From: Strigamia acuminata | Taxonomy: Eukaryota | Length of the DNA: 64,000 bases | Reading direction: 5' to 3' | NCBI GenBank assembly: GCA_949358305.1 | Contig: OX442314.1 | Location: 5,518,001 to 5,582,000 of the forward strand | Part shown: positions 1,692 to 57,658 of the stretch, in pieces | Position numbering within the stretch: the stretch's first letter is position 1 | How the letters are laid out: every line of letters starts with the position of its first letter | Translations under genes and position numbers: made by a program | The notes under the pieces: generated by a model | What the model was told of the DNA's origin: nothing | Seen by the model: only the letters and a program-made list of their open reading frames with translations | Databases searched by the model: none

Positions 1692-2322
1692 TGTGGTGAT
1701 TCAGCATCACCTGAAGAAGTAATTAGCGGTGATTATTGTGTTACTAATACTCGCCACTAGAGCGCGCTAGAAATACCGACTAGACTGACTAGTCGCGTGT
1801 TTCTGCGAACCTGCATAATCAGAAGGATTTGCATATGACGTCATTTCCGGTTAATATATATAGCCAATGCTTGACCGGAAACGACACTACAGTTACCACA
1901 TTTCAGCAAGAGCACCATTTACCTCACCTTTCAGGCCGTTTCACGGATTGATCGAGGACCGGTGCCCGCTGACCATTTCAACTGTACAACAGCCACATTT
2001 ATTTAGCGTAGCCAATCTACGCTAGAATAAATATTCGAACGATATTCGTTTAATTCGCACGAGAAAGCGAATTCTCGCGTGTTCATAATAACACGTGGAA
2101 ATACCCTAGACAACAAACATAGACCACGCGTAGGACTAAACAATTGGATCCGCCATTGTTTAGCGGCAACTCGTATTCGCAGCCGAATCCGAGGACCAAC
2201 ACAGGAAACATCTTGACTTATATTTGTATTAGTAAGCGTGTTTTAATAAAGCAGTATTTGAAATATATTGTATTCCCGAGTGTATTATTTATTATCTTTA
2301 ACCACAAAGTCGAATCACGACA
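1692..2322 (+). repeat. E1 5' LTR
   Basis: Direct repeat of 12823-13453. Contains octamer ATTTGCAT (1827), CRE TGACGTCA (1836), a TATA-like box (~1856) and AATAAA (~2245). Confidence 0.97.
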
Positions 2323-2324
2323 CG

Positions 2325-2342
2325 TGGGGGCCTGTCCGGGAT
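2325..2342 (+). promoter_or_regulatory. E1 primer-binding site, tRNA-Pro-like
   Basis: TGGGGGCCTGTCCGGGAT, 2 nt after the LTR; 16/18 match to the canonical tRNA-Pro PBS TGGGGGCTCGTCCGGGAT. Confidence 0.85.
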
Positions 2343-2414
2343 AGATTTGCTAACCTTAAGACAATACTTTAAATAATAACCGGGATCTTTCGATCGATCA
2401 TTATATCGTAAGAA

Positions 2415-5261: not shown

Positions 5262-8200
5262 TTCCACATCCGCTCGCGATAACTTCGAAAACGATGGACC
5301 TTACACTGGTGGAAAAACAAATTAAAGAAATGAAAAAATTGTTGGAATTCTTCGAGGAAGCTGCCAACGAGGAAGTCACAACTCCAACCAAAAAACGGAA
5401 ATTCGAAATTAGAGACGAAGACGGTATAGCCAACGCTTTCATGACTTTGCCGCTTGACCAAGGGGCCAATCCTCTTAAAAAGCGAATACTTCGTTGCAAC
5501 CTATCAACAGAAGCGAAGAGCGTACTGGCTAAAATACCAGTCTCTTTCGGCAAAAAGGTGTTAATGGGACTACTCGACTCGGGAGCGGATCAGTCGTTTA
5601 TCTCCACCGACTTATTCGAATCACTCGAAGAAAAAATACAGAAAAAATTACGGGGAATGAACGAGAATATTCGAGTTCTTACAGCAGCGGGAGAAGTTAG
5701 AGCAGTGGGGACGTTATCAACCGATTTTGTATGGGAAGGAGGCACGATTAAGCATTTCTTCATCGTGTTACCAACCCGAGACACAATCCTGCTGATAGGA
5801 ATGGATTTGATGGAACGGATGAACATCCAGCCCAACCCAGTCACACGTTCGTGGAATTACATCGACAACCACGAGGACCCACGACTACCCATAATACCTC
5901 CGGAACTCCTAGACAAAGCTAAGGACGACGAGGAATGGGGAGGAGGCGAAATTAAGAAGTTCATCCAAGACTATAATTTTAAGTCGTTTAATACTATCCT
6001 CCAAGAGGAGAATTTAATACATAATCTGGCCATGGACGCCAATCTTGGAGAAGAACAAACGAAACTCCTCGAGGAAATGCTCAAGAAGCACTCGAAGAAC
6101 TTAAATAAAGATCCAGGAAAGACTAGTTACGTAATGCACGAGATCGAATTGGTTACGGGAAAACCGGTGCGAGTACCTTTTAAAACTATGAATCCCCAAA
6201 AGAGACATATCGTAAGAACGATGTGCAACGAGTTGCTCGAAAAAGGGATCGTGTCGCACGCCATCGGAGAATATGGAATGAGGATTGTCCTCGTCATGCG
6301 ACCAGGCTCCGAACCGCGCCTCTGCATCGATTATAGACCTTTAAACGCCATAACCGTCATCGACCCCATCCAAATGCCGTCAATAGAAGCGATTCTACGG
6401 GAGCTCGCCCCATTTAACTGGGTCACGACCATGGACTTGTCCAAGGGTTACTGGCAGGTTGAATTGCGGGAAGAGGATAAAGAGAAAACAGCTTTTTGGG
6501 CACCACAGGGTCGACTGATGTTTAATGTAATGCCCTTCGGGTTAGTAAACGCACCCGCCACCTTTCAAAAACTAATAGAAAAAGTTCTCGGCGATGCCTT
6601 ACACAAATACGCATGGGCTTACCTCGATGATATAGTCATAGTCTCCCAAACTTTTGAAGATCACCTGATACACGTGAATGACGTCATGGAGCGACTCACA
6701 AAAGCCGGTCTAAACATTCATCCAGGGAAAAGTAAATTTTGCCGCAAAGAATTGGCATTCCTGGGTTACACAGTCGGAACAGGTGGCCTATCCATCGACC
6801 CGAAAAAGACCCAGGCGATTAGCCAGTTCCCCGCCCCGGAAGATGTAAAAGGAGTCCAACGTTTCATGGGCATGGTGAATTTCTTCAATCGATTGCTCCC
6901 AAATTTGGCAGACGTCGCGGCGCCCATCACAGATCTGTTACGCAACGATAAAGATTTCGAGTGGACTGACCACTGCGAAACATCGTTTAACAAAATAAAA
7001 CAAATGCTGATCGATGTAAAACGAATTCCCCTACCAGATCTTAATCGAGAATTCACTCTTCACACCGACGCCAGTCGAATTGGCCTAGGTGCTGCGTTGC
7101 TTCAAAAGCATGACATCGACGGAGTAGTGTTAGAGGTCCCGACGATGTTCATCAGCCGGAAATTACAAGCAGCCGAAAAGAATTATAATGCGACAGAGTT
7201 AGAATGTCTAGCCGTCGTCTGGGCAATCCGAAAATTCAGACCATACCTGGAATTTACCAAGTTCAACGTACAAACTGACCACGAAGCACTAAAGTGGTTA
7301 ATGGCGTTGAAGGAACCGTCCGGAAGAATGGCTCGCTGGCAGCTAGAATTAATGGCTTGTGACTTAATCATTGAATACCGACCCGGAAAATTCAACGTCG
7401 TGGCAGACGCCCTCTCACGAGCCCCAGCTTCAGACCCCGAAGACGAGACCGACTGCGGAGAGGACGACTCACGCCTCTTCTACTGTCCGAACCCCGTCCG
7501 AAAATGGGAATTTAAAAAGCTAAACGAATTACCCAAGGAGAAACTCGAGTCAGGAGACCAGAATTATTACAGTTATTGGCTCCGAGCGTACCAGTCGGTC
7601 AAGGACGCTCACCCAAATTATGAGCTAACAATAGAACCTCGAATCTCCGACAAGTACGTTCGAGCATTCGTCGCCCACGTAAGCAAGGGGACGAATAGCA
7701 AACCGCCCACCAGGGACGAATTAATAGCCGCCCAGATGGCAGACGACTTCTGTAAAACTTATCGAGACTTCATCACAGATAAAATATTTCCCGACGAGAA
7801 TTTCGACGAAATCCAACGTGAAGAATTCGAAAGAGAAGCCTCCACGTACTTAATCGAGGATGGACTTCTACTAAAACACCACCCGAATTTCCGCGATGAT
7901 CTGACGGAGACAGGAACTTCGATGAAAGTCGTTATACCCAGGAGTCTGCTGACAAGGTTTCTGTGGATGGTCCACGGACACCCGCTCGCCGGACATTCTG
8001 GAGTGGCCAGAACGATCTACCGAGCAAATCAACTTTATTTCTGGCCAAAAATGACCCGAGATATTGTTCGTTTTATTCATCACTGCCCCAGATGCCAAGC
8101 GTGCAAGCCGAGGACGCCCAAGAACTACGAGAGAATCTCACTTGGCCCTTTCGCACCCTTCGATTGCTGGAGCGTGGATTTAATGGGCCCAAAACCCACG

Positions 8201-9340
8201 TCATCCAATAAAAACAAATATATATTAGTAATCATGGATGTCGCGACTGGATGGCCCGAACTCTTTCCAATGGAGAGACCAACTAAGCAAAAAATCATTC
8301 GATGTTTGTACGAAGTGGCGCTTCATTTTGGATTCCCTCGAAAATTAATCTCCGATAATGGACCACAATTCGCGTCAAATTTGTATAAAGACTTCTGTAA
8401 AAAATTCGACATCGAGACATCATATACATCAACCTATAATCCACGGGCCAATCCCGTCGAAAGGTTAAATCGCGATATAAAATATGCACTAGCAATTTTC
8501 ACCGATGTTCACTCCAGCTGGGACGAATATCTTCGTGAAATTGCCTTCAGCATCCGCACAACGATCTCAAGGAACCGCAAATTTTCTCCCGCGTTTCTAA
8601 ACTTCGCTCGGGAACTCAGAGTACCCTGGGACCCACGAATACCGGAGGAAATACTGGAAATTGATCCTGAGAAGCCTCATATTTATGTCGACAGACTGGA
8701 GCAAATAATTTCGGCCACTTATCAGCACATGATGTCACACATATTCGACATGAGAGATCGTATTAGCATTGCTGGAAAGGATCGGCCCTTCTGCAATTTT
8801 AAAGTCAATGACCTCGTCTGGAAAGACACACATATTCAGTCCAGCGCCGATAAGGGGATCCACGCAGGCTTAGCAGACAAACGCGACGGCCCGTACGTCA
8901 TACTCGAAGCCCACGGCGGAAACGCTTTCAAGCTAAAAAGATTGGCAGATAACGTTAATTTTAGATCGATCCACGCCCGAGAATTAACTCCATACTTACC
9001 TGAGTTTCCTCAAGAGGCTTGGACGGAATATCAGACGAAACCAGCGAAAAATCCAATTATTCGCGACATGTTTTTAGATGAACAAACTGGCCCAACCAAT
9101 TTAGTTCAAGATGAGTTACTCGAAGTGGCCGACGCCCCGGATGAGATTTCGGGGAGGGAGGAAATAGTCGCAGAATCTCCTAAAAAAGGAAAGCAATCAA
9201 ACAAAAAGAAGACTACAGGAATCCCCAAACCTGATAAAATATACGGTATGCGCCGACACAAGCCAAACCCGTTCATAAAAGACGGGAAACTCGTCGGAAA
9301 ACAAAAAGCGACTCCGGCCATTGTCTCAAACAATCGATAA
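5228..9340 (+). CDS. pol: E1 Pol (PR-RT-RNaseH-IN), likely via -1 frameshift
   Basis: LLDSGA protease, YLDD RT, TDAS/ELECLAVVWA RNase H, HHCC + DDE integrase, GPY motif. Frame is -1 to gag and open from the A AAA AAC site at 5228-5234. Confidence 0.95.
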   Translation, partial: KKLELAGGTKVIPHPLAITSKTMDLTLVEKQIKEMKKLLEFFEEAANEEVTTPTKKRKFEIRDEDGIANAFMTLPLDQGANPLKKRILRCNLSTEAKSVLAKIPVSFGKKVLMGLLDSGADQSFISTDLFESLEEKIQKKLRGMNENIRVLTAAGEVRAVGTLSTDFVWEGGTIKHFFIVLPTRDTILLIGMDLMERMNIQPNPVTRSWNYIDNHEDPRLPIIPPELLDKAKDDEEWGGGEIKKFIQDYNFKSFNTILQEENLIHNLAMDANLGEEQTKLLEEMLKKHSKNLNKDPGKTSYVMHEIELVTGKPVRVPFKTMNPQKRHIVRTMCNELLEKGIVSHAIGEYGMRIVLVMRPGSEPRLCIDYRPLNAITVIDPIQMPSIEAILRELAPFNWVTTMDLSKGYWQVELREEDKEKTAFWAPQGRLMFNVMPFGLVNAPATFQKLIEKVLGDALHKYAWAYLDDIVIVSQTFEDHLIHVNDVMERLTKAGLNIHPGKSKFCRKELAFLGYTVGTGGLSIDPKKTQAISQFPAPEDVKGVQRFMGMVNFFNRLLPNLADVAAPITDLLRNDKDFEWTDHCETSFNKIKQMLIDVKRIPLPDLNREFTLHTDASRIGLGAALLQKHDIDGVVLEVPTMFISRKLQAAEKNYNATELECLAVVWAIRKFRPYLEFTKFNVQTDHEALKWLMALKEPSGRMARWQLELMACDLIIEYRPGKFNVVADALSRAPASDPEDETDCGEDDSRLFYCPNPVRKWEFKKLNELPKEKLESGDQNYYSYWLRAYQSVKDAHPNYELTIEPRISDKYVRAFVAHVSKGTNSKPPTRDELIAAQMADDFCKTYRDFITDKIFPDENFDEIQREEFEREASTYLIEDGLLLKHHPNFRDDLTETGTSMKVVIPRSLLTRFLWMVHGHPLAGHSGVARTIYRANQLYFWPKMTRDIVRFIHHCPRCQACKPRTPKNYERISLGPFAPFDCWSVDLMGPKPTSSNKNKYILVIMDVATGWPELFPMERPTKQKIIRCLYEVALHFGFPRKLISDNGPQFASNLYKDFCKKFDIETSYTSTYNPRANPVERLNRDIKYALAIFTDVHSSWDEYLREIAFSIRTTISRNRKFSPAFLNFARELRVPWDPRIPEEILEIDPEKPHIYVDRLEQIISATYQHMMSHIFDMRDRISIAGKDRPFCNFKVNDLVWKDTHIQSSADKGIHAGLADKRDGPYVILEAHGGNAFKLKRLADNVNFRSIHARELTPYLPEFPQEAWTEYQTKPAKNPIIRDMFLDEQTGPTNLVQDELLEVADAPDEISGREEIVAESPKKGKQSNKKKTTGIPKPDKIYGMRRHKPNPFIKDGKLVGKQKATPAIVSNNR

Positions 9341-9518
9341 AAACAACCACAGGGGGGACACCTGTTACGTCCCACAATGCGTCTTAATTGGCCAAACCAA
9401 TCAAAGATGACATGAGACTAATAGTTAACCTCTAACCCGACCCACACTTATCACTGTCATCTCCGACTAAGCAACGATCACCTCGAGACAGCCGTGAAAT
9501 CAAATTAGTTTCCGAAAA

Positions 9519-12500
9519 ATGAGAAATGATTGGAAGAAAGAAATTGAACGGGCCGTAAACAACGCTTCCGAGGATGACGATGAAGATCAAGTGGATTTGT
9601 TACAAATCATTGTAAACAACGAAGAGGGAAATTGGGACGAACCCAATGAACCCGATGTCCAACCCGACGTAAGTAAAAAATAGAAAAAATTCAATTATCG
9701 ATAATCAAAAATACGAAATAAGTTCGTGGACTGACCACAAACGAAGAAATAATTTAACTTTAAGTGACAAATTATCAAAATTAATCAAATACCGAAAGAA
9801 AAATTAACTTCAAGACACGTGGTCGAAAAGCACATGGCCGACCATGACGCCATCTTGTGTTAGACGAAAGAATCTCTACAAAAATATGACAAATTAATCA
9901 ACGATCCTAATATATTTATTAATATTCTAATATTTAGGACGGATATCGCACTACGTGGGGGCAAATCGACCCGAAAAGAGTTTCCGCAGGCAGCTTATGG
10001 CGCGAAGTAATCCCCATACTGTTCCGACAAGCGCTCGAAGAAGCGGTCGACTTTGAACCATGGAAAATTCGCCTTTTATTGTCCCGTGCGATCAGCCGCT
10101 ACTGGTCCAGCCAGCAAACGTTGATCCACTACATGCCGCGCCAATATCAAGCAGCTTTACGGGCAGTTATCTCGAGAAATATGGACCCGCCAGCGCCAAT
10201 CCCGAATCCACTAATCCGAGCCGCCTTTCCTGACGACCAGCGAGGATGGGACGTTTACGAACAATGGCGCGACGCCGAAACAGATGAAGAAAAACACCAG
10301 ATTCATATGGCATATTACGAAGAAGTAAGGCGGACCGCACATGACGAGGTTTTCAATTATCTACAGCCGGACGGTTACTCGACCGAGGAAATCAGGTTTT
10401 GGCTCCTTCAGATCCGCGAAGACCGGCCCGACCGCCCAGATTGGAGACCGAGACACGGTTTCATCACCTCGCAACGAGCAATGCATCAATTGCATTTTTT
10501 GGGCTTCTTTGGTCGCAAACGCCAGAAGGCCGAGAAACGTCTCTCCAACGAGCACGACGAAGCAGGCTGCTCAGCGAAGAAACCATGCCTGGACAAGCCA
10601 AGCACTTCCAGCAGCGCGCAGAATAAGAAACCCGCGACAGAGAAACGCCTGGCCAAACCAAGCGCTCTCTCTCGCCTGGGAAAGACGGAGATCCCACAAA
10701 CATCGCGATTTCAATCCAGGGATGCCCCGTCAACCAGCCGAAGAAGAGAAAATGTACGCGAACGCCCCGACCGCCGAGAAGATCAACGCCGACGCGATAG
10801 GAACCAAGAAAATTGGGACGATTATCGTAGAAATTACTTCCGACGGCGGGAAGAAAACAAGGAATCCTGGAATAGACACCGAGAGGAGTTCCTGCGCGAA
10901 CGTGATGAAAGAGCCCGACGTGAACGAGAGAACCTCCGTCTACAAGACGAACGAAGAAGGAGAGGATCGGAGAGTCGCGCACGTTCATGGAAAGCGTATC
11001 GTGAAGAAGAAATTCGACAGCGAGATAGGAGGCGCTGCGAAGATACACGATCAATTCGGGACAGTCCCGAACCAATGAAGATCGACGATGAGGTAATTAT
11101 CGACGAGGTCCCCGAGCAAAAGAAGATGTATACTCAGGCGGACCTCCTCGCGGTAGTTATGCAATACCAACAAATGCAGCCGAAACCAGTCTACCGCCCG
11201 ACTCCCTCGACCGCCTCGAGTCTAGAGACGGCGCCAAGTGCTTTCATCAAGCCGGAACTCTCGCAGACGAGAAGCGTAACATCCAGCGTCAGCCTCCCAA
11301 GCGCCTTTCGCAAGAAAGTGATAATCGGCGCACCGACACTGAGTTCTGAAGAACAACTCAGACATCGAGAAGCTCGCTTTGGACCGGCCAAAGTCGAACC
11401 TCTCCCAACTATCCCCGAAGCCTCAACTTCAACGAGAACTCCAATCGTTTGGGACAAGCCCGAACCGGAAAAATCAAGACGTCTGGTCAGATCTGTGCCT
11501 CAGCCAACGACATCCACGGGACCCAATCCGATGTTGCCAGCCCCAGCAGTCATCCAAGCCTCGACTCCAATCAACCCTTCGGAGGTAACGTTGCAACAGT
11601 TTCTGGAGGTAACGACCGTGGAGCAAGCTAGAGCGCTGTTGTGCGAGATGGACTCCTACCAACAAAACGTGATCCAAAACGTCATCACGAACCTTCAGCG
11701 GATCTCGATTGAATATACGCAGAACAAAAATCGGGATCATCCAAATTGGAATACGAGGATCGTGGTTGCCATTACCGACTTGATGTCGATTTTGCTGGCC
11801 GCCGCCACCTTCCGAAACGCACGTGTTGCTGTGGCAGCCTGGATCGTGGTGGCCCACGAGGGTTTCCAAGTCCCGCCGGCTCTCGTAGACAGCTGGACCC
11901 GCCTAGTGCCCTCTGCGGCAGTAATTCGAGCCCAAATGGTGGCCCAGGACCCGGATCCAGAGACCTCCTATCAGAACGTTCGAGCGATCATCCAACACCC
12001 ACGCCCGTCGTCTTCAGTGACCACACCCGTCGTGGAAACTCCGGCTCCCAGGGATCCGACGCCTCCTCCTCCGCCTCCGCCGAAGGAAAATAGACCTTCC
12101 GAACCACTGGCCGAACCAGTCTCGCTCAAAAAGAAGGAAACAAAAGGAAAATTGCTCCGCCCAAAATCGAGCATGAAAGCTTCAAAGACGGCCGAACCTC
12201 AGATCGCCGCCAGACTCCGGATGTACTTCCCGGGGTTGTCCTTGACGAAGGATACTGAAACAAAATTACTCCAAACCCCAGACCGTGGCTATTCTCTTTA
12301 TGTCTGGATGAAGAACGCTATCGAAGCTGGAGCCGGAGGCGATCGCTTCATCCAGCATCAACGACTACTCCGAGCCCATCGCGCGCCAACCAGCATTGCC
12401 GAGGCCCAAAGAATCCATCACACCAATCAGGGAATGTCGCCCTTTTTGCCGCCAATTTGGGCCCACGAACGAACGGGGAATCCGCTGGAAGCACCAGGTC

Positions 12501-12628
12501 ACTTACGTTTCTACTTGAACGAGAGCGAAGACCCCTCGGACTACTCTTCAAAATTGACCACATCTCCCAACCTGGACGAACCAAGTTCGGAAGATAAGCC
12601 AAGTTACGCCGATAACTTGAAGAAATAA
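9519..12628 (+). CDS. E1 spliced third ORF, unknown function (~946 aa; exons 9519-9668 and 9938-12628)
   Basis: ATG at 9519 opens 50 codons ending at a GTAAGT donor. A 269-nt AT-rich intron ends TTTAG at 9937 and joins the long ORF in frame. Homologous to E2 ORF3. Confidence 0.75.
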
Positions 12629-12822
12629 TTAATTACATATTCATAACGAGAAGACTGTCTTCTCTAAAAAACCCTGAAATTATTTATGTATCAATTTCAA
12701 GAATGTAAAATATTTTGTTCATCATTCATCATTATTTAATAAAAAGATTATTTATGATTAAAGATACTGCTCCACCTTTATTTAAAGGGGGGGCCCCGAT
12801 GATTTATTCTCGGGGAGGGACG

Positions 12823-13453
12823 TGTGGTGATTCAGCATCACCTGAAGAAGTAATTAGCGGTGATTATTGTGTTACTAATACTCGCCACTAGAGCGCGCTA
12901 GAAATACCGACTAGACTGACTAGTCGCGTGTTTCTGCGAACCTGCATAATCAGAAGGATTTGCATATGACGTCATTTCCGGTTAATATATATAGCCAATG
13001 CTTGACCGGAAACGACACTACAGTTACCACATTTCAGCAAGAGCACCATTTACCTCACCTTTCAGGCCGTTTCACGGATTGATCGAGGACCGGTGCCCGC
13101 TGACCATTTCAACTGTACAACAGCCACATTTATTTAGCGTAGCCAATCTACGCTAGAATAAATATTCGAACGATATTCGTTTAATTCGCACGAGAAAGCG
13201 AATTCTCGCGTGTTCATAATAACACGTGGAAATACCCTAGACAACAAACATAGACCACGCGTAGGACTAAACAATTGGATCCGCCATTGTTTAGCGGCAA
13301 CTCGTATTCGCAGCCGAATCCGAGGACCAACACAGGAAACATCTTGACTTATATTTGTATTAGTAAGCGTGTTTTAATAAAGCAGTATTTGAAATATATT
13401 GTATTCCCGAGTGTATTATTTATTATCTTTAACCACAAAGTCGAATCACGACA
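12823..13453 (+). repeat. E1 3' LTR
   Basis: Follows the PPT; copy of 1692-2322. Confidence 0.97.
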
Positions 13454-13839
13454 AACTTAAGTAATACATTACTCTATCGTGTGTCTGATAAGTGAGCATG
13501 CATGTGCAAAATAGGAGCAAAATTAGCCAAAATATGTGACGTCTGCTCCAATGTTTTCTACTGTTTACGAAATCATCCAGACCCATTAAACCGCAGTTCG
13601 GTTTGTTGGCGTAATCTTTTATCACGAGTTGAATTTCTGTACGTAGTTTTCTTAATCTTCGCATATTTCTTCCGATCAAGTAATTTCTTTGCATTTTACA
13701 GCTGTATTTTCTGTATGGTTGGCTAGACCACAGCTGAGTTCAGACTTGTCTCTTGTCTTCTGTTTACTATAATGTCTTATTTCTTATGGTAACTACTTCC
13801 ATGACGATTATTGATTCAATTATTTCTTGCCAACCTGAC

Positions 13840-18749: not shown

Positions 18750-21700
18750 TCATGCAAACGGGTTTAAACGACCATTTATGTGTTTTTGAATGCGCCTACT
18801 GTTTACAATGAAAATGTAGAAAGATAGTAATGACATTCCCAAACCTAATCCTACAATGCTGCCGATATCGCTTAACAATTGAGAGATTGGATATTTCTGT
18901 TTCTCTTCTATGTTCTCGGTGAAACTATCAGCGAATCGAATATTTGCAAACGTGAAGAAATTAACTGGTAATTTAGCCCCGTACAAAATGGGATGGTAAA
19001 ATATATGTTCGCAAGGTTGTTTACATTTGCACTGTTTTAGATTCGAGTCGTAGTTCTTGAAGTATGTAGTATGAGCGATAGAAATATCTTTTGCAGTGTT
19101 ACAATCGGGCAAAGTAGAAGTTAGCATATACGGTAGCCTGAAAAATAAAAACAAGATCTACCGGTAATTAATGAATAAACGACAACGAAATGTGAAAATA
19201 AATAAAAATAAATGTGAAAAAAGCAAATACAGGGTGTCCCAAAAGTCTGAACCACCCCAAGTAATTTCCAAAATACTTGAGATATCAGAAAACTGAAGTA
19301 AAACTCATAGGGGGGGGGGAATCTTTCATTGCGAATCTGATGGGATCCACAAATTTGACCTCAAAGGTCATTTTCAAGGTCATTCACTTGCTAACTTCTA
19401 AACCAATCAGGTTAGAGCAAAATTTCCAATTACAAATTTGTAGAGAACCATCTAATTAGTCTAGAACTGTTCTTAAAAAAATTATTTCTTACGGAAAAGT
19501 TTTGAGAAAAAAAGGTTTGAAATGTTAGTCTACTCAGCTTTGTAACTCAGCTTTGTAACTTAAAACTATTGAGGCAACCAAGCTAATCCTCAATTAGGAC
19601 ACTTTATTGGGTCATACTTGTAAGTGGAAGAGAGGAAACACAAAAGAAAGGAAATAATTTATTTTGAAAATACATTCCACATGATAGTTTTAAGTTACAA
19701 AGCTGAGTAGACTAACATTTCAAACCTTTTTTTCTCAAAACTTTTCCGTGAGAAATAATTTTTTTAAGAACAGTTCTAGACTAATTAGATGGTTCTCTAC
19801 AACTTTGTAATTGGAAATTTTGCTCTAACCTGATTGGTTTAGAAGTTAGCAAGTGAATGACCTTGAAAATGACCTTTGAGGTCAAATTTGAGGATCCCAT
19901 CAGATTCGCAATAAAAGATTCCCCCCCCTATGAGTTTTTCTTCAGTTTTCGGATATCTCAAGTATTTTGGAAATTACTTGGGGTGGTTCAGACTTTTGGG
20001 ACACCCTGTATAGATGCGTGAAGTTGTAAACAAGCATGTTAATACATAGCAATCTGCACTGAGGCGTGAATAAAATGAAAAAGTGTCAAGCAGTTACCCT
20101 ACCTGCAGTTAATGCTTCGAAATAAATTGTTTTGCATGCAAGCGTTTTTACACATCAAATAAGCAGTTTTGTTTTCTTCACATGGATTGCGCTTTGTATT
20201 TCGTCGTGCACTCTATTTGATAAAATCAAGGTTGGTATTAACTTGATGTACTGTAGTCAACATATTGTTTAATTAAATACCTTATATATTCGAAGTATTA
20301 CATCATTCCACCAACCATATATTAAATCCAATGGTTCCAGAAAGTTAACTTCCTCATCCTGGTTATTTAGGAATAACTGTATGAATAATATAGTTCAAAA
20401 TTAAGTGGCTTTGTGTCTTAGTTTTCTTTAGTTAAAATTGATTTATTCAACTGAATGAGAGAATTTGCTTCATCGAAATGATAAGTTATTCACAAACCTT
20501 TTTAACAGCCCAAAATGCATCACATTGCTGGTTGACAGATATCCAGAACCAGCTGACTACATTGCTTGTCGTTCAACTCAATTCCTGTCAACTGGATTCT
20601 AGCCTGACGAATCTGGTACACCTTAGCGACCAAACCTTAGCATTTAGCACCCTGATGACAAGGCCAAACAATTGGCAGCCATTTGCTTAAATTATGTTTT
20701 GGTCGCTAAGATGGGCGTCGCTAAAACGTACCATCTTAGCTCAAAGATTGACGACGTATAGTCACTTAATCCGAGCCTGACAAGATTCAGGTGTTTTACT
20801 GTCCATTGATTTTTACCATACCTTCATATGCTGGTAACACACTTCTGAAGGAAATAAATGTTCAAATACAAATTCGAGGTGAACCATTTGGTTATTTGTT
20901 TTTTCTGAAAAACAGTGAAAAGATCTGCATCAATTTTCAAACGAATCAGCAATTTTAATTACAGTTAAATACGAATTTGAAAAGGGCATTCAACTGCTTT
21001 ATACACAATCGCCTTAAAATGAAGGAATGAACTTTACACAATTTTTGTCTTAAAAACTGATTGTCCAAGAGCATGATTGGGCTGCAGAGATAATTTGGGG
21101 AAATCATTTTCGATTAGACTGAAAAACCTTTAAAAAATTGCCAATTAATCTCATGCTGAAATGGTGGCAAAACAAAGCAATGTCATCAATGGGCTGGGCA
21201 GTTAACTCAATTCACTTTATCAAAACAAATTTGACACCTTGTCCCAAAAATCCCCAAAATTCCCAAATCACCTAACTTTGCGGTATGTGTGTCTGTGAAA
21301 TTACCTGCTGCATTTACATGCTTGTGCGTTGTGGTGATCTCGAATTGTTTCACCACTTAGGAAGTAAAATATTAATTATTTCCTAATTAATTTGGCTTGG
21401 CACACGCCAAGTCAGATCATGTGACCGAGGGGAGAAAACTTCCTTAGGCACATATCACCTCAGGTTGGCTGGGGTTGAAAACGGCGATTAGCCATTATGG
21501 AGCAATATGATGTAATAATCCTTTGTTGCACCAGTTTTAGCTAATTGCGCAGATTATCTGTGCAATATTGAAGCGTGCCGGGCTCGCGCCCTAGCTTCAA
21601 TCGGGACTCTAAAATAAACATCACAACCCACAACATCACTGCTCTTTCCTCTGAATTAGTATTGACAGTGGACCGTGAGTAATTTTAGTTTCACCAAGCT

Positions 21701-24416
21701 TACTTCGTGCAACACCGTGCGAAGCCAGCTTATCCGCGTAGATCAACCGTCGTTGATTCCGCCATCGTAAAGAGAAGTTCTCGCTCAACGTGAACCATCG
21801 CCTCGACGAGCGCGCGAACACCCGCCGACGCCATCGTACGCTGACCGGACGCCTGCCCGAACGTGAACCACCGCCACCGCGCCGTCGTACGCCGAGCAGA
21901 AGAGCTCATGAGAACCATCGTCCGAGGACCATCGTTCGTGAGTTTCCCGAAGACTGCCGTCTTCAAACAACACCAGTTGTTAAGCGCCATTTTAGCGCTT
22001 TTAGCTTGCAACAGTCGTTGCAAGCCTTTCCATTGTTCATTTCCATTATTTCGCGACTTGTCGCTTTTTATCATATTTATTCTCAAATATTACTAGTCAT
22101 TTTTATTGTATTTTAACCGAATAAAACATTGTGTGATTTGAATTGATAAAACTTGTATTTTATTTCCTAAATTAACCCTAGATAATTTCGGCCGCTGATT
22201 GTAAGTCTCTAGTAGCATTCACCTGCGGTTTCTGCTTAAATTTTATTAGAATTTAAGCAGATAAAACCCGGATCGCAGCAACGTACACGTACCTGTATTG
22301 ATTTGTGTACAATGTCCAAAAGGAAGAGGAATAAGAGTTTTTGAAATGTTTAATATAGCTTTATATCCACGAAGATACTATAAATGTCAAATAATTTAAT
22401 ATAATTTTCTAGTCCCGATTATATTTGAGAATGTACCTTATCAGATATCTCATCATCAAAATTAAGTGTTTCGTGGACGTTGAGTGTGTTCCATATTAAT
22501 TGCAATGACAATTCGTTGTTGAACAATTGCCATGGTGATATGTTATTGCAGGTTTTGTTAGTTTGATTCATTAAGTTCCATCTGGCTTTATCAATGTCAT
22601 TATTTTGTATTTCACCACAGACCGTGACAGACGGATATTTGGTAAAGCGTCGTGGAACTATTCTCACAATTTTTGTTGCCGGTTCTTCAAAGTAGTAGTT
22701 TACACGAATTTGCAAGCAATACAACGTGATTCCCGAGCAAATTATAACCAGAATTGTCTTAAGAGCAAGTGAAATTACATTTCTTTTAATTGGTTTCTGA
22801 CTCGCAATTATATTCTTTGAGCATTTGTTGTAAACACGGCGAATCTTATTAACTGTTTTTTTTTTCCAAATGTTTGATAGATACCAAGCGATTTCAGGCA
22901 AGGCGGTTAAAGATAGACCGAGAAATAAGCCCAGATTTCCTCCTAAATCTGATAGTAAAGCAATAACATCATATGTGTACCGTTCTTCATACACGTTGAT
23001 TTTATCGTTAGTTATTGCTAACGATATGGATACAGTGTTTTTATCATCTGCTATGTCTGCATCAGTGGATGGTGTAAACATTAAATATTCACATGGACGT
23101 CGACATTGACAATCAGCAATTGGGTCGGTAGTTTCAATTAAACGATTTGCAACACCATATAGTTCGTGGGTGGTATTTGAACATTTGCAAAGTGGTAAAA
23201 TTATCTTTGTAAAGGGAAATCTTGCAAAGAAGATTATTGATTAATATTTTGATTGTAGTTACTGTATACAATATATCATGCATTCTTACCTGCAAGTCAG
23301 ATGTTTTTTAAATTTTTTCATTAAGCATCCACGATAGCATTCTTTGTATTCGTTTTTGCTGGAGCATAAACTCGTGGATGAATTGAGAAATATGAACTAA
23401 AATTTAAAAGTTTATCTATATTGTGTGATAATTTTCATTTAAAACTAAAAAATTTACTTTCTTAAAACTCAAATTTAGTTTTAATATTTCACCAAGCTTT
23501 GGTATTGTTACTTCAATGTTCCTGCCGAAATCGTAGAATGACATGTAAAGCTAAATCAATATAGAAAAAAAAAATGTATAACAGATTTTCTTTTGATTCA
23601 TTGGTAATAATTTAGTAAGCTTACTAGGTAGGGAGCGATAAGGCATACGTAATCATATTTATTTTCAATATTTACAGTCAATAAATTGCGAACAAATGAT
23701 TTGCTGGAAGCTTTAGCTGTACCAATAAATGATATAGGTTAGCAAGCAGGTGAGAAGACATATGTTTTTTGTTTATATAGTTACAAAATTGAAATGTTGA
23801 GCAGATTCCATACGAAGTGTCAGTTTCCGTGAGAACAACTGTTTTGTTGGAAAATCCCTGAATTAATTAGGTTTAAATGAGTATTTAAAAAAGAAAAAAA
23901 ATTATTTTTACTTTTTTTTACCTTCATTTTAATGCTGACTATCTCTTTAGTTAAATTGGTGGCTTTCCAAAGTTCATCCATATTATAAGTTGGTTTTTTC
24001 ATCAGACTTTTCACCATATTTGCACATTCATAGTTGGGTGAAAGCGGATCAGCCACAACATTCGGATAAGTTTTATTCCAAATTCTGACCATTTCTTTCG
24101 TGTTGCCACTGCAGATCATCAAGCGTGGTAACACAATCTCTTCCGATTTGGTCGTTACGTCAACAGTTGTAGGATTACTTAAGTAATACATTACTCTGTT
24201 GTATGTTTGGTAAGTGACCATGCATGTGCAAAACAGGAGCAAAAATAGCCAAAATGCATGACGCCTGCTCAAATGTTTTCTACTGTTTACGAAATCATCC
24301 AGACCAATTAAACTGCATTTTGGTTTATTGGCATCATCTTTAACCATGCGTTGAATTACAGGACGTAGTTTTGCTAATCTCCGCACATTTCTTCTCATTA
24401 AGTAATTTGCCTGCAT
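18750..24416 (-). CDS. DEG/ENaC-family channel, paralog 2; apparently intact, two tandem subunit domains (~801 aa)
   Basis: Hand-built GT-AG exon chain, 2406 nt with no stops: 24416-23922, 23857-23785, 23716-23625, 23550-23458, 23396-23290, 23220-22437, 22377-22293, 20904-20822, 20376-20281, 20212-20103, 19137-18750. Domain A: TM1, LPRLMIC, GICSTF, Cys-rich thumb, TM2 LLSDLGGNLGLFLGLS. Domain B: TM1, YPSVTVC, GHCTQIN, thumb, TM2 LLSDIGSIVGLGLGMS. Start codon uncertain. Confidence 0.85.
19230..20008. mobile_element. Palindromic Tc1/mariner-type MITE in intron 10 of paralog 2
   Basis: Ends CAGGGTGTCC...GGACACCCTG, TA TSD, ~330-bp inverted arms. Absent from the equivalent intron of paralog 3 (~29625). 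Confidence 0.9.
21330..22280 (+). mobile_element. Solo LTR of an E2-related Gypsy family in intron 7 of paralog 2
   Basis: TGTGGTGATCTC...CCCGGATCGCAGCA, colinear with the E2 LTR (35169-36132). Imperfect 4-bp TSD GCGT/ACGT; empty site at ~31455. Confidence 0.92.
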
Positions 24417-27128: not shown

Positions 27129-27930
27129 GTCTAAATATCATACTGCACTGGTTCACTAATTCCTTACTTGTCAATAATTTGGATGCCTGCTTTAGATGGT
27201 TATGAGATGTGATGTAAGTTTAAAAGGTAATTTCACTAATCACAAAAAGATTTTTTGCACCAACATAGATTAAAACATACCATAATGAGTTGTGTGACGT
27301 GAAAAACACGCTAAAGCATAAATACCCAACAGAACACTCAACGTATGGTGCTAACTAACTTGTGATAAAACACCCAAAACAATTGATCCTGCATCCAAAA
27401 ACTTGATGGTCACTTTAGGTGGCTTTAATACGAAGTTTACCATTTAATAAACTGACAAGTGAGTGCTTATCTCTTCACTTCACGTAGAACAAGATTACTG
27501 TTACAAATGATTCTTGACGAAATACCAAATTTGTTCTGTTTGGACCAGAAATCGATTATGCAAATCGATTATTCAAGCAGACTTTGAAGCAATTAAAACT
27601 AGGCGCATTCAATAAGTTTGTTTAAATTTTTGTCTCAAACGAATTTTTAGACGAAAAGTGCGGTTTCTGAATGCAATTGTTTAATTGGTAAATAAACGAA
27701 TATTTCACTGCAAAACTTGATCTGGGATTCCAGATCAAGTTCCAAGTCATATTCCCGCTGCAAGTCGCATACGGGTATCTCTTTCGAGATTTTCGTTTCC
27801 TCGCCTTTTTTTTTGTTTCCAGTCCTAATAATTACTGAAGTGATTAATATTGTTTTTTAAAAGTTCATGCAAAGGTGTTTAAACAACCGTTTATGTGTTT
27901 TTGAATGCGCCTACTGTTTACAATGAAAAT

Positions 27931-29233
27931 GGGCAACATATTATTTCACCCCCATTTTGACTAGTTTTTACCCCCAAAAGAGGGTTTATTTTTCCCCCCA
28001 TCCAAACTCCCCCAAGTAAACTAAAGGGCCCCCCTAACTGTAATATCCCCTACTATTGTATTTTTCCCCCAACCAATTAACCCTCATTTATTTGTAAACG
28101 AACCCCCAAGAATTATTTATACAACCCCCTACGTTTCAAACACGTTCCCCATTGTTACGTCTTGGCTACGGTTAGATTTTGTAGTATATAAGTCGGTCTG
28201 GAAGAATCACATAACCATAAAACACTGTTGCACAGTTGTAGTAACAATGGCACCTACTCGACTTGTAATTAACGATTCCGATACCGATTCCGATAGTGGT
28301 GAGTACGAGCCGCCAACCAAACGGAAGACTTTTGAGTGGACGAAAATTCGAACCTTTTCTACGGGTGAGGAAGCCAAAGAATACATCCGGAATGAGAAAA
28401 TGTGAACTTGTTTTTGGACTACTTTGAAGCCGTATACTTGGAGCAATTCGTTGGCTGGCACACGGGACACTTCAAAGGCGCGCCATGCACCAACAACGGC
28501 TTGTAGTCGACCAACAACAGCATTAAAACACACGAGACATTTCGGGAGAGACTGGCAATGGACATCTTCATTCATAAGTTGAAAGGGATGGTGAAATGTT
28601 GGTCTTTAAAAAGGCACATGGAATCCGACGGTTACAACTGGAAACGAACAAAACCTAGCGTGATTGTCCGTGTACAAGGTAATGTTAAGTCTTACTATGT
28701 CACCCCTGGTGGACAACCAAACTTAACAGACACCAGTGTAAATGCCTACCTGCGGCAAGAGGAGCGGAAAAGTTGGCGCCGATTCGACACATACCTGCAC
28801 TCAAGAAGTAGTGTGTGGCTGGTTAGTATTACGAATGATGCATGGAGCACGGGAACGTGCACATGCCCCGTGTTTGCAAAAATTTATATTTGTAAACACA
28901 TTGTTGGGATAGCTGTTATTGAGAACTTGCTTGTTGTGCCACCGGAGGCCAAAACCATTCCCCTTGGCCAAAAAAGAAAGCGTGGGCACCCAGCTAAAGC
29001 GAAGAGGGCCTTGTGTACGCAGTGAGAAGACAGCGTTATGATATTGGGATTACGTGGGGGGTACTTTAGAAATTATTGGGGGTAAAATTGGTTGGGGGGG
29101 CAAACACATTACTAGGGGGAAGTAAAGTTTGGGGCGGTTATTTAGTTTACACGGGGGGGTTTGGTTGGGGGAAAATTTTATTCCACTTAGGGGCCAAAAT
29201 TTAGTCAAAATGGGGGTGGTTTAAATCGGACCC
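27931..29233 (+). mobile_element. Internally deleted Mutator-like element (MULE)
   Basis: GGG...CCC ends, long imperfect TIRs, TSD ATGAAAAT at 27923-27930 and 29234-29241. ORF 28558-29025 has a SWIM zinc finger (CTCPVFAKIYICKH) and a basic tail. Confidence 0.88.
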
Positions 29234-29900
29234 ATGAAAATGTAAAAAGATAGTAACGACATTCCCAAACCTAATCCTACAATGCTGCCGATGTCGCTTA
29301 ACAATTGAGACATTGGATATTTCTGTTTCTCTTCTAAGTTCTCGGTGAAACTATCAGCGAATCAAATATTTACATACGTGAAGAAATTAACTGCTAAGTT
29401 AGACCCGTACAAAATGGGATGGTAAAATATATGTTCACAAGGTTGTTTACATTTGCACTGTTTTAGATTCGAGGCGTAATTCTTGAAGTATGTTGTATGA
29501 GCTATAGAAATATCTTTTGCGTTGTTACAGTCAGGCAAATTAGAAGTTAACATATACGGTAGTCTGAAAAATAAAAATAACATCTAATTAATGAATAAAT
29601 GAACACGAAATGTGAAAAAAGCAAATATAGTTGTGTGTTTTTGTAAACAAGCATGTTAATACATAGCAATCTGCACGGAGGCGTGAATAAAATGAAAAAG
29701 TGTCAAGCAGTTACCATACCTGCAGTTAATGCTTTGAAATAAATTGTTTTGCATGCAAGCCTTTTTACACATCAAATAAGCAGTTTTGTTTTCTTCACAT
29801 GGATTGCGCTTTGTATTTCTTCGTGCACTCTATTTGATAAAATCAATAAGGTTGGTATAAACTTGATGTACTGTAGTCAACAAAGGATTGTTATCATAAT

Positions 29901-30392
29901 AGAGAGTTTGCGGGATACATTTTTCCCTTACAGTTAAAGACTATACGGTGTAAAAATAGTGTAAGGAAAAAATAATAAATTAAGTTTTTGCGGGCTGCAG
30001 TTTCTCCTTATCAGTACACTATTTTAGCCAACTACTGACAGTTAGTAATTTTGGGCCTAAAAATTCAATTTGGGCGTAAATGTACAAATTTCTGCATAAA
30101 ATTACAATATTATGCCTATAAAGTATGGTTTTGGGCCTAAAATTCAATTTTGGACCTCACTTATTATTCAATCTACATACCTATGACTGTGATGTGTTTG
30201 ATCGGGACAACAAAATAATCGCCATTTGCAATGGGCGGAGCTAACAATATAATGTTCTCAATTCTGATTGGCTGCGCTATATTTTAATTTAGTGTTGAAA
30301 ACGATACACTACAGATTTTTCTCTTACGATATGGCACAAAAATAGTGTATCGTGGAGCAAAATAAGGGAAAAATGCATCCCGCAAACTCTCT
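29901..30392. mobile_element. MITE in intron 9 of paralog 3
   Basis: TIR AGAGAGTTTGCGGGAT(A/G)CATTTTTCCCTTA at both ends, flanked by AT; absent in paralog 2. Superfamily not determined. Confidence 0.85.
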
Positions 30393-32772
30393 ATCGTTTA
30401 ATTAAATACCTTATATATTCGAAGTATTACATCATTCGACCAACCATATATTAAATCCAATGGTTCCAGAAAGTTAACTTCCTCTTCCTGGTTATTTAGG
30501 AATAACTGTATGAATAATATAGTTCAAAATTAAGTGGCTTTGTGTTTCAGTTTTTTTTAGTTAAAATTGATTTATTCAACTGAATGAGAGAATTTGCTTC
30601 GTCGAAATCATAAGTTATTCACAAACCTTTTTAACAGCCCAAAATGCATCACATTGCTGGTTGACAGATATCCAGCTGACTACATTGCTTGTCGTTCAAC
30701 TCAATTCCTGTCAACTGGATTCTAGCCTGATGAATCTGGTACACCTTAGCGATCAAACCTTAACATTTATCACCCTGATGACAAGGCCAAACAATTGGTA
30801 GCCATGTGCTTAAATTATTTTTTGGTCGCTAAGATGGGCGTCGCTAAAACGTACCATCTTAGCTCAAAGTTGCTAAGATTGGCGACTTATAGTCACTTAA
30901 TCCGAGCCTGACAAGATTCAGGTGTTTTACTGTCCATTGATTTTTACCATACCTTCATATGCTGGTAACACACTTCTGCAGGAAATAATTCTTGAAATAC
31001 AAATTCGAGGTGAACCATTTGGTTATTTGTTTTTTCTGAAAAACAGTGGAAAGATCTGCATCAATTTTCAAACGCATCAGCAATTTTAATTACAGTTAAA
31101 TACGAATTTGAAAAGGGCATTCAACTGCTTTATACACAATGGCCTTAAAATGAAGGAATGAACTTTACACAATTTTTGTCTAAAAAACTGATCGTCCAAG
31201 AGCATGATTGGGCTGCAGAGATAATTTGGGGAAATCATTTTCAATTAGTCTGAAAAACCTTTAAAAAATTGCCAATTAATCTCATGCTGAAATGGTGGCA
31301 AAACCAAGCAATATCATCAATGGGCTGGGCAGTTAACTCAATTCACTTTATCAAAACAAATTTGACACCTTGTCCCAAAAATACCAAAAATTCCCAAATC
31401 ACCTAACTTTACGGTATGTGTGTCTGTGAAATTACGTGCTGCATTTACATGCTTGTACGTACCTGTATTGATTTGTGTACAATGTCCATAAGGAAGGGGA
31501 ATAAGAGTTTTTGAGATGTTCAATATTTTTTTAAATCCACGAAAATACTATAAACATAAAATAATTTAATATAATTTTCTAGTCCCGAATATATTTGAGA
31601 ATGTACCTTATCAGATATCTCATCATCAAAATTAAGTGTTTCGTGGACGTTGAATGTGGTCCATATTTTTTGCAATGACAATTCGTTGTTGAACAATTGC
31701 CATGGTGATATATTATTGCAGATTTTGTTAGTTTGTTTCAATAAATTCGATCTGGCTTCATCAATGTCTTTATCTTGATTTTCACCACAGACTGTGACAG
31801 ACGGATATTTGGTAAAGCGTCGTGGAACTATGCTCACTGTTTTTGTTATCGGTTCTTCAATGTAGTAGTTTATACGAATTTGCAAGCCATACAAAGTGAA
31901 TCCCGAGCAAATTATAATCAGAATTGTCTTAAGATGAAGTGAAATTACATTTCTTTTAATTGGTTCCTGACTCGAAATTATATTCTTTGTGCATTTGTCA
32001 TAAACTCGGCGAATCTTATTAACCGGTTTTTTTTCCCGAATGTTTGCTAGATACCAAGCGATTTCAAGCAACGACGTTAAAGACAGACCAAGAAATAGGC
32101 CCAGATTGCCTCCTAAATCTGACAGTAAAGCAATAATATCATATGTGTACCGCTCTTCATACACGTTGATTTTATCGTTAGTTATTGCTAACGATATGGA
32201 TACAGTGTTTTTATCTTCTGCTGGGTCTGCATCAGTGGATGGTGTAAACATTAAATATTCACATGGACGTCGACATTGACAATCAGCAATAGGGTCGGTA
32301 GTTTCAATTAGACGATTTGCAACACCATATAGTTCATGGGTGGTATTTGAACATTTGCAAAGTGGTAGATTTATCTTTGTAAAGGGAAATCTAGCAACGA
32401 AGAAATTTGATTAATATTTTGATTGTAGTTACTGCACATATATATTGCATTCTTACCTGCATGTCAGATGTTTTTTAAATTTTTTCATTAAGCATCCACG
32501 ATAGCATTCTCTGTATTCGTTTTTGCTGGAGCATGAACTCGTGGATGAATTGTGAAATATGAACTAAAATTTAAAGGTTTATCGATATTGTGTGATAATT
32601 TTAATTTAAGACTAAAAAATTTACTTTCTTAAAACTCAAATTTAGTTTTAATATTTTACCAAGCTTTGGTATTGTTACATCAATGTTCCTGCCGAAATCG
32701 GAGAATGACATGAAAAGCTAAGTAAAAATAAAATAAAAATTAATAACAAAATTTTTATTTCGTGATTCATTA

Positions 32773-33118
32773 TACTCTGGTTCGACTCAAGAGTATGCCC
32801 TTCTAAGAGCCGCATCACTGGTGTAGTGATCCATAAATGTAGACCCAAACACCAGAAATGGATTCCAACGTGCAGCCATTTTTAATCGATAGACTGTAGG
32901 TTACTTGATTACAAGTTGTAGACTGGTGCAAGTTGGTCAGAGAAAAGAAAAAGGTAATTACATTGATCGAAATTCACATCCGATTCGTCTAAAACATAAT
33001 CTAAAATCCCACGATTGCTTAATTCCAGGGCACTACTTTTTCTAGTGGTAGTAATACAGACTGGGGTTAGGAGTGATGCGGCTCTTAGAAGGGCATACTC
33101 TTGAGTCGAACCAGAGTA
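32773..33118. mobile_element. MITE with TA TSD in intron 3 of paralog 3
   Basis: ~47-bp perfect TIR TACTCTGGTTCGACTCAAGAGTATGCCCTTCTAAGAGCCGCATCACT; empty site ATTCAT-TA-GTAATAA in paralog 1 (~1111). Confidence 0.9.
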
Positions 33119-35168
33119 TAGTAATAATTTAGTATGCTTACTAGGTACGGAGCTAGTGGGCACACGTCAGCATACGTGTTTTCAATATTTACGGTCAATA
33201 ATTTCCGAACAAATGATTTGCTAGAAGCTTTAGCTATACCAATAAATGATATAGGTTATCAAGCAAGTTAGAAGACATATGTTTTTTGTTTATAGTTACA
33301 AAATTGGAATGTTGAGCAGGTCCCATACGAGGTGTCAGTTTCCGTGAGAACAACTGATTTGTTTGAAAATCCCTAAACAAATCAGGTCTTTTAATTTTTA
33401 AAAAAAACTTTCATTTTTTTTACCTTTATTTTGATGCCAACTATCTCTTCAGTCAAATTGGTCGCTTTCCAAAGTTCATCCATATTACAAGTTGGTATTT
33501 TTATCAGACTTTTCACCATATTTACACATTCATAGTTGGGTGAAAACAGATTATCCACAAGATTCGGATAAGTTTTATTCCAAAGCCTGGACATTTCTTT
33601 TGTGTTGCCACTGCAGATCATCAAGCGTGGTAACACAATCTCTTCCGATTTGGTCGTTACATCAACAGTTGTAGGATAACTTAAGTAATACATTACTCTG
33701 TTGTATGTTTGGTAAGTGAGCATGCATGTGCAAAACACGAGCAAAAATAGCCAAAATGCATGACGCCTGCTGAAATGTTTTCTACTGTTTACGAAATCGT
33801 CCAGACCAATTAAACTGCATTTTGGTTTATTGGCATCATCTTTTACCATGCGTTGAATTGCAGGACGTAGTTTTGCTAATCTCCGCACATTTCTTCTCAT
33901 TAAGTAATTTGCCTGCATTATATTTCAGTAAATGGGACCAGAGCAGACTTCAATGTTTCTGTCATCAGTGGTACTTGCCACTTTAGGCTTGGACAAATTA
34001 TTTTTTAAACCTAACTGGTCTTTACAACTTGAGAGCTTGTTTGTTTGGTGTTGTATCCTTGAAAAAACAAGGCAACTACGCTCTTTATTTGTCGTTAAAT
34101 TCAGAATTGATCCGTGTTTTTATTACCTAGAAACACCGCATGTAAAACCCATAAAATTATACAAGCAGCAAAAATATTGACACAATTTTCATTGATTTAG
34201 AAATTAGAAGTTAAGTGTTTGACCGTTGTAAAAACGTACAGTACGCAATTCACCATCAGATGGCTCTGTTTGATTAGACGCGGCTAAGTTTAAACGAGTT
34301 AAAGGAATTATAAATTAATTCTAAGTATATATAAATAAATATGTTTATTTTTGTAAGAATGCCGAATCACTATATGACATTGGGTCAGTAACAGCTCACA
34401 ACTGCTCTCTGTTCTGCCCTTTTATTGCTTTGCTGCTTAATGATATACAGGTCGTCCTTGGGCTGAATAATCAATCGAGATTATTCTAGCCACGAATCAT
34501 ATCCACCGATAGGATCCGAAACCACCGATTATTAAAGGAGTTGTGACATAAAAATTTTTTTTTGTAATAATTGTAAAAAATGATTAAGTATTGTTAAACA
34601 AAATGTTTCTCAATTTTTTATAATTTTAAGTGTTATTTTTTTACTATAAACTAGAATTAAAAATGCTAAGCCCCGCCCCCTCTGAAAAACTCCAAGAAAC
34701 CGGAAATGACGTCATAGGCAGAACAGATTTCAATAGCTGCATACAGAAAAAACCAAAAAATTCAATATTGCGTCTAAAAAATAAAAAAGAATCGTATAAT
34801 TTTTTGTGTGATTGATGAAGCTTCTGTAATCTTCAGAAAGTTTTATACTCTATAATAGATTGATTTTTAATTTTTTAAATAGATTTTTTAAAAAAAAATT
34901 TGACATTTTTTTTCAATTTGTTGGTTTTATTTACTCCGTATTTAATTTTCTTCAAATCAATCACAAAATGTACTTCCAAGTTTTAGCATTAGGTTTTGTG
35001 TGCATTTTTTCAACAATTGTGTGTTTTTATTTCTGTGTGACGTCTTACAGATGTCATTCCAAACACTGTCATTGGTGGACACACCTTAAATGACGTCATC
35101 GGCAGAATTTTATTGTTTCCCTGATTTTGAAGCAAGGCAGTAAAGCGCAAAGGGCAATCCCTTAAATT

Positions 35169-57606: not shown

Positions 57607-57658
57607 ATTGGTTCGTTCATTTTCTCTCCATGTAAGATTCGTCTTAAATGGGGGGATG

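Follow-up and report, generated by a model that had tools for sequence, protein, structure and literature searches.

DEG/ENaC channels are normally trimers of three separate two-helix subunits. Here, I describe a gene of the centipede Strigamia acuminata in which two such units follow each other in one reading frame, against the rule of one subunit per polypeptide. The gene lies in a stretch of 64,000 nucleotides (nt), hereafter the window (GenBank assembly GCA_949358305.1, contig OX442314.1, positions 5,518,001 to 5,582,000 of the forward strand, counted from 1), where it is the middle member, paralog 2, of a tandem array of three paralogs, and it occupies 18750..24416 on the minus strand. 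Rebuilt from the window, 2382 nt joined from 11 exons encode 793 amino acids (aa) with the sole stop at the end; GT-AG borders are found at all ten introns, and the intron phases along the gene are 0,1,0,0,2,0,1,0,0,2. Splice sites, phases and two units of the Pfam family ASC support the gene model. Exon 1 (23922..24416) carries the N-terminus, the first transmembrane helix (TM1) of unit A (aa 54-72, 24257-24201) and the start of ectodomain A, which is continued by exons 2-5 (23857-23785, 23716-23649, 23550-23458, 23396-23290) as placed by the splice model. Exon 6 (22437..23220, 784 nt) holds the thumb and second helix (TM2) of unit A (22970-22881), a basic cytoplasmic linker (22776..22880), TM1 of unit B (22775-22707) and the start of ectodomain B. 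Unit B then runs through exons 7-10 (22377-22293, 20904-20822, 20376-20281, 20212-20103) to exon 11 (18750..19137), which contains its thumb, its TM2 (18890-18798) and the stop. The splice model for exons 1 and 11, and the open frame for exon 6, are backed in all three cases by Pfam and by hydrophobicity.

A first-pass annotation of this DNA had claimed that exon 6 continues from TM2 of a complete subunit, through a basic linker of about 35 aa, into a second TM1 and the motif YPSVTVC. The rebuilt frame bears this out: from thumb A via TM2a, a linker of exactly 35 residues (aa 393-427) and TM1b to YPSVTVC, the exon contains neither stop nor intron. At the stop frequency of short introns the chance of an open 35-codon linker is about 0.05, so that the open frame convinces by its conservation and not by its length. 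No in-frame Met occurs in the exon 6 frame between aa 370 and 480; unit B therefore cannot start there with its TM1, and a separate start of B within exon 6 is ruled out. One weak poly(A)-like hexamer (ATTAAA) is present in the exon, within the linker, and no stop precedes it. Gapless contigs with 21-26 differing letters (about 10% diverged) span the linker in three DNA runs from two studies; these may stem from paralog 3, and one of the runs may be the source of the assembly itself.

Scanned exon by exon, the DEG/ENaC family Pfam ASC (PF00858) matches exons 1, 6 and 11 with 44.6, 54.3 and 49.8 bits against a cut-off of 23.6, covering profile positions 5-79 in exon 1, two stretches in exon 6 (the better being 347-453) and 333-450 in exon 11. 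Two full units had been expected from such a scan; they were recovered in the spliced 793-aa protein (aa 27-395 and 424-779) with a purpose-built unit profile, the only profile applied to it, Pfam itself having matched the three exons. The four helices likewise expected are the four strongest hydrophobic 19-residue windows, at aa 54, 364, 427 and 758 (1.44-2.27; next best 0.86). Each ectodomain has 12 cysteines as well as N-glycosylation sequons, and the Gly-x-Ser belt of TM2 reads GLS in unit A and GMS in unit B. In place of the His-Gly motif that precedes TM1, unit A has Ile-Gly, and the corresponding segment is missing from unit B; lack of the motif is no bar to membership, as it is also absent from an accepted member, the centipede channel PDPNaC1 (see below). 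With ASC above the cut-off, two helices and a Cys-rich ectodomain per unit, and the Gly-x-Ser belt, the predicted gene product can be placed in the superfamily. No R-x-K/R-R site occurs anywhere in the protein.

The two halves are indeed highly diverged, as had been proposed, 81 of 348 alignment columns being identical (23%). Their five introns were said to lie at equivalent positions with the same phases: the phases agree in all five A/B pairs, but only three pairs fall in the same alignment column, the remaining two being offset by 4 and 7 residues, within loops that align poorly.

Both neighbouring copies lie on the minus strand. Paralog 3 (27865..33918) has 11 exons of identical lengths and the same open junction (exon 6, 32390-31607), but it is broken in exon 11 by a nonsense codon 732 (29364-29362) and by a Mutator-like insertion of 1.3 kb in TM2 of unit B (29233-27932, with a 9-bp target duplication). 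That element (27932-29233) has terminal inverted repeats and a SWIM-domain frame at 28507-29022. The first-pass annotation had cited paralog 3 against an artefact; the shared junction stands, yet the argument is weaker than stated because the copy is about 89% identical to paralog 2 and broken, and the models of S. maritima described below are the stronger evidence. Paralog 1 (268..13694) encodes nothing beyond unit A and the linker (432 aa; its stop ends at 268), a feature which had been overlooked; an A-only gene thus adjoins two-unit genes in the same array. Its exon 1 is split by an 11.8-kb retrotransposon whose long terminal repeats (LTRs) are 99.8% alike; the insertion runs from 13453 to about 1692 and is flanked by a target duplication of 4 bp. 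This element (1692-13453, plus strand) is of Ty3/gypsy type and very young, with a pol frame at 5153-9337 followed by an 896-codon frame (9938-12625) without a Pfam match. Compared with paralog 2, the first 80 codons of paralog 1 have a synonymous divergence (dS) of 0.33 and the remainder of 0.09 (13454-13694 versus 1434-1687), which suggests gene conversion or recombination between paralogs. A second unit of paralog 1 was not found in the window, the 282 bases after its stop are not repeated elsewhere in the window, and a search of the six frames of the window gave no DEG/ENaC units beyond the three paralogs.

Between paralogs 2 and 3 the ratio of nonsynonymous to synonymous divergence (dN/dS) is 0.45 overall (95% interval 0.32-0.65), 0.36 in unit A, 0.53 in unit B (0.32-0.93) and 0.22 in exon 11; judged by this ratio, exon 11 is under purifying selection.

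Conservation of the junction in related species had been named beforehand as a test of the fusion, and the junction recurs in protein models of Strigamia maritima. Exon 6, used as query against 1.84 billion representative proteins, gave 211 matches, the best 150 of which were compared; among these listed matches, 35 carry the TM2-to-TM1 junction. Thirty of the 150 were traced to their source, and 20 of the 30 are from S. maritima. At least 15 named S. maritima models have the junction, with 25-63% identity to exon 6. Among them, T1JEH2 is 61% identical over 98% of the exon length, and 52% identical to the whole protein over 692 columns. Twelve of the 15 are of the A-B type and three belong to a second group, whose entries include P0006, P0008, P0010 and P0022. 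In this group two or at least three head-to-tail units are 53-58% alike, the junctions are near-identical between models and the units fall outside the A-B clade; it probably goes back to a later concatenation of its own. Half to half, complete A-B proteins share only 25-31% identity. The stretch between the Asp of TM2 and the Pro that follows TM1b is basic and measures 88-116 residues in all but one of the 24 rows aligned (89 in the window gene; 43 in the exception), and no conserved linker motif appears in the family alignment. Across the aligned family units TM2 is far better conserved in A than in B, the belt Ser being swapped for Cys or Thr in three of eight B units.

A tree was built from 48 rows drawn from 116 units; the exclusions were units that fill fewer than 200 profile positions or exceed 520 residues, cluster members nearly identical to one another, and paralog 3. 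All 11 A units form one branch and all 13 B units another, with support of 95 and 88, respectively, in the Shimodaira-Hasegawa-like approximate likelihood-ratio test (SH-aLRT); the single-unit S. maritima protein T1IGW0 sits beside the two branches (SH-aLRT 87). Since A and B units separate in this way, the tree favours one old fusion at the origin of the A-B chains. The earlier proposal of an old tandem duplication fused into a four-helix heterodimer is thus supported by gene structure, by the Strigamia relatives and by the unit tree. A profile search of a 90% collection returned only the seed (one of 7988 candidates) and a near-length search two S. maritima models (two of 440); neither yielded a transcript-derived protein across the A-B junction.

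The fold was predicted with AlphaFold2 from a 24-row alignment for the relative T1JD34 (P0011), in place of the window protein. The predicted local distance difference test score (pLDDT) is 73 and the predicted template-modelling score (pTM) 0.69, the latter suggesting, for two equal units, a defined relative placement in the model. Unit A matches PDPNaC1 with Z 19.4 (root-mean-square deviation 3.2, 318 residues aligned) and unit B matches the heat-activated centipede channel BRTNaC1 with Z 21.3 (4.6, 321 aligned). In the model, TM2a is broken at the GxS belt and passes through a short linker helix into TM1b, the linker region being of low confidence. When the A-B chain of P0011 (aa 52-762) was predicted in complex with one more A ectodomain as third member, the alignment not being used, the score was 0.03 and the mark 0.34. 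In ASIC1, the lower part of TM2 packs against TM1 of the neighbouring subunit; titles of PDB entries name a domain-swapped form. Packing of this kind would bring the ends of TM2a and TM1b close together, which would explain the short linkers.

By sequence and fold rank, the closest characterised channels are BRTNaC1 and PDPNaC1. BRTNaC1 of Scolopendra subspinipes mutilans (PDB 8YMR) is the best PDB sequence match of the family profile (E 4.8e-42) and the best fold match, and resembles the fused units in its compact ectodomain and in coming from a centipede; unlike them it is a single, unfused 431-aa two-helix subunit encoded by seven exons (PMC9974506) and is about 20% identical. PDPNaC1, a proton-gated channel of centipede antennae (PDB 9JF7; E 1.5e-36), shares with both fused units the lack of a canonical HG motif (PMC12714832), and in both units a Gly is kept four positions ahead of the first residue of the GxS belt, where PDPNaC1 has its Gly378 constriction. 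It differs in being a homotrimer of single subunits (PMC12714832). Engineered concatemers of ASIC and ENaC (ASIC1a, PMC6497441) also join subunits head to tail on the cytoplasmic side, but they are artificial and consist of near-identical full-length subunits, whereas the fused gene is natural, has halves 23% identical, lacks the entire N-terminal segment in B and joins two units rather than three. The same A-linker-B layout is seen in the UniRef models of S. maritima (T1JEH2, T1JD34, T1ITL7, T1IPM9 and others); these are labelled only as uncharacterised proteins, many are partial, and no published description of them was found in the literature searched.

The same protein scan with exon 6 brought up three-unit chains in other arthropods, likewise overlooked before, which fall elsewhere than the A-B family in a FastTree tree of 116 units. 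By its sequence such a chain would be a whole trimeric channel in one polypeptide. KAG5672929.1 of Polypedilum vanderplanki (P0029) has 1460 aa and three units 44-45% alike. Two Logan proteins (P0147, P0107) of 1268 and 1272 aa, from contigs of 4.4-4.7 kb, have three full units; those of one chain are 24-27% alike, whereas units at the same position of the two chains are 43-52% alike. Proteins of 1000-1050 aa with a shrunken middle unit cluster with Penaeus vannamei and Petrolisthes entries and come from Logan contigs of 3.4-4.5 kb. As the Logan contigs are scarcely longer than the coding sequence, a transcript origin is suggested. Besides P0147 and P0107, the three-unit Logan and database entries comprise the P0078 cluster with XP_069977668.1 of Penaeus vannamei, P0102 of Petrolisthes, P0032, P0067, P0118 and P0129. 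The predicted structure of the shrimp chain P0078 is poor (pLDDT 53.6, pTM 0.35) and was not used. The two- and three-unit entries of insects and spiders could be merged gene models; those of Oedothorax gibbosus (P0052) and Callosobruchus chinensis (P0038), like P0029, have units 42-45% alike and are younger fusions or merged models.

That the reading frame of paralog 2 is real and conserved may be taken as practically certain, and, as far as the sequence tells, its product is very probably made as one intact chain. The A-then-B chain would be transcribed and translated as a single four-helix membrane protein, likely the outcome of one old tandem fusion. Two does not divide three, and a fused pair therefore likely needs a third partner: I put at about 0.5 the probability that A and B occupy neighbouring positions in a trimer whose remaining slot goes to a separate subunit. 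A and B would stand side by side, the end of TM2a passing via the short linker into TM1b, and the third slot would be taken by a separately encoded single-unit partner, such as an A-only gene like paralog 1 or a relative of the T1IGW0 type. The pore would then be asymmetric in a fixed way, one face being contributed by B and lined differently, and the channel would probably be a sensor of heat, acid or chemicals, to judge from its resemblance to BRTNaC1 and PDPNaC1. Precedents for the parts of such an arrangement exist, human ENaC entries in the PDB comprising beta-gamma dimers (9BTU) and 2:1 trimers (9BTG), and engineered ASIC1a concatemers being able to conduct (PMC6497441).

Several observations weigh against a trimer of an A-B pair and a separate third subunit. 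The gene was read from DNA, and the chain is a prediction. Just one of the three tandem copies is intact, a pattern resembling birth-and-death evolution, and paralog 1, disrupted in the present haplotype, may be a mere truncation. The second Gly of the D-x-G-G of TM2 is kept in 23 of 23 A units and replaced by Ser or Asn in seven of eight B units, and in the T1JD34 model TM2 of B is one unbroken helix. Over aa 428-664, in unit B, the dN/dS reaches 0.99 (0.52-2.48), and for the linker it is 0.73 (0.21-2.75); both values come from the comparison with the broken paralog 3. The S. maritima entries are automatic gene models, many partial, known as proteins only; the unit tree has long branches, and a duplication inside the window gene's own subfamily, though 26 log units worse, is not rejected by the approximately unbiased (AU) test (p-AU 0.07). 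Finally, T1JD34 is only 25-27% identical per half to the window protein, and its model may be driven by likeness to solved trimers.

Other assemblies account for part of the same evidence. A possible, though doubtful, arrangement is that the fused chains combine with one another alone. Half of a further A-B chain would then fill the third slot and its other half would sit in a neighbouring trimer, so that three chains form two pores or a lattice. It would need no further partner, and two-unit genes, two being no divisor of three, are numerous: at least 12 named S. maritima A-B models less than 50% identical to each other stand against one named single-unit sister, a count skewed by the use of the junction exon as query. 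Yet single-unit relatives do occur in the window and in S. maritima, and a partly helical linker of 35 residues would leave little slack between two ectodomain-capped trimers. It is rather unlikely that three chains form an A3 pore with B outside it, as a tethered accessory or ligand-sensing module or in a partly functional state. The stronger conservation of TM2 in A, the dN/dS near 1 over most of the B ectodomain, the loss of B in paralog 1 and the breakage of paralog 3 in the last exon of B alone would all fit. Against this, B retains its 12 Cys, the TM2 Asp, Gly-x-Ser/Cys/Thr and the complete fold across divergence to 25-28% identity, exon 11 shows purifying selection (dN/dS 0.22), and an unpaired subunit would expose large interfaces.

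Separate A and B subunits, released by a cut in the cytoplasmic linker or made from alternative transcripts and forming A2B or AB2 trimers, are a less probable outcome still. A co-expression device of this sort agrees with a linker that is basic, poorly conserved in sequence, modelled with low confidence and host to ATTAAA, but is at odds with its narrow range of lengths, with the absence of a conserved motif from the alignment and of R-x-K/R-R from the protein, and with an exon 6 that offers neither a Met to start B nor a stop to end A. Two-pore channels depart from four-subunit ancestors, and by analogy two chains could form a pseudo-tetramer (A-B)2, the only closed assembly of fused chains alone that uses every unit once in one pore. 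This departure from the trimer rule is highly improbable, since the closest solved relative is a homotrimer (PMC12714832) and the three-unit chains of other arthropods fit a trimer. That the junction is an error of assembly or annotation, or a recent read-through without function between two neighbouring genes, can be virtually dismissed: although the locus is known from DNA and two of three local copies are broken, the junction sits within a single exon, by which a merging of genes is ruled out, the diverged gapless contigs span the linker (with the reservations given above), and the same junction recurs in another genome at 25-63% identity.

On a wider scale, I regard it as rather probable that gene fusion has fixed the stoichiometry of DEG/ENaC channels more than once in arthropods: an ancient two-in-one family would have expanded in geophilomorph centipedes, as a fixed A-B pair with an exchangeable third subunit or as linked trimers, and three-in-one chains would have arisen independently in decapods and a midge. 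Two-pore channels, K2P channels and Nav/Cav channels were built by internal duplication. They resemble the fused gene in a gene-level subunit fusion that fixes an asymmetric pore, and differ in that their repeat number is a divisor of the fourfold symmetry, as two is not of three. A natural two-unit chain is an exception to this rule of channel symmetry and therefore calls for an unusual assembly: the third subunit may vary, pores may come in pairs, or one domain may stand idle. Its short linkers and fixed subunit order may serve as evolved templates for asymmetric pores of the ENaC/ASIC type, and it offers a test of whether trimers form by way of a dimer. Blind soil centipedes may, moreover, have a large family of candidate sensory channels that has been overlooked and that is related, among the channels studied, most closely to sensors of heat and acid.

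The architecture is real and conserved, and to all appearances it has not been described before. It had been stated that linked DEG/ENaC subunits are known only as engineered concatemers, and the searches gave laboratory constructs only: the full-text literature, searched by word matching and with few subscription papers covered, yielded no description of natural multi-subunit chains. The papers compared include PMC5203786, PMC7067487, PMC7510291 and PMC8341984. In PMC4244043, 'sodium transport' is named among lineage expansions; its text passages contain no ENaC term and its supplement files 1, 7-12 and 57 no match. For candidate PPK genes of S. maritima, PMC8438182 refers to Vizueta et al. 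2020, and that study or the supplements of PMC4244043 might mention such models.

The window also contains other repeats. An insertion in intron 7 of paralog 2 (21329-22280) has copies at 35168-36132 and 57656-58197, and a palindromic element resembling a miniature inverted-repeat transposable element in intron 10 (19227-20011) has a relative upstream of the gene (24745-25196); a short-period tandem array lies at 26476-26922. A second gypsy-type element (44699-57603, plus strand) includes a gag frame (46607-48700) and a 758-codon frame (55330-57603) without a Pfam match; its first 1917 bp (44699-46615) are 100% identical to 37183-39099, and a perfect head-to-tail duplication of 1686 bp within 51968-55337 is a recent event or an assembly artefact.

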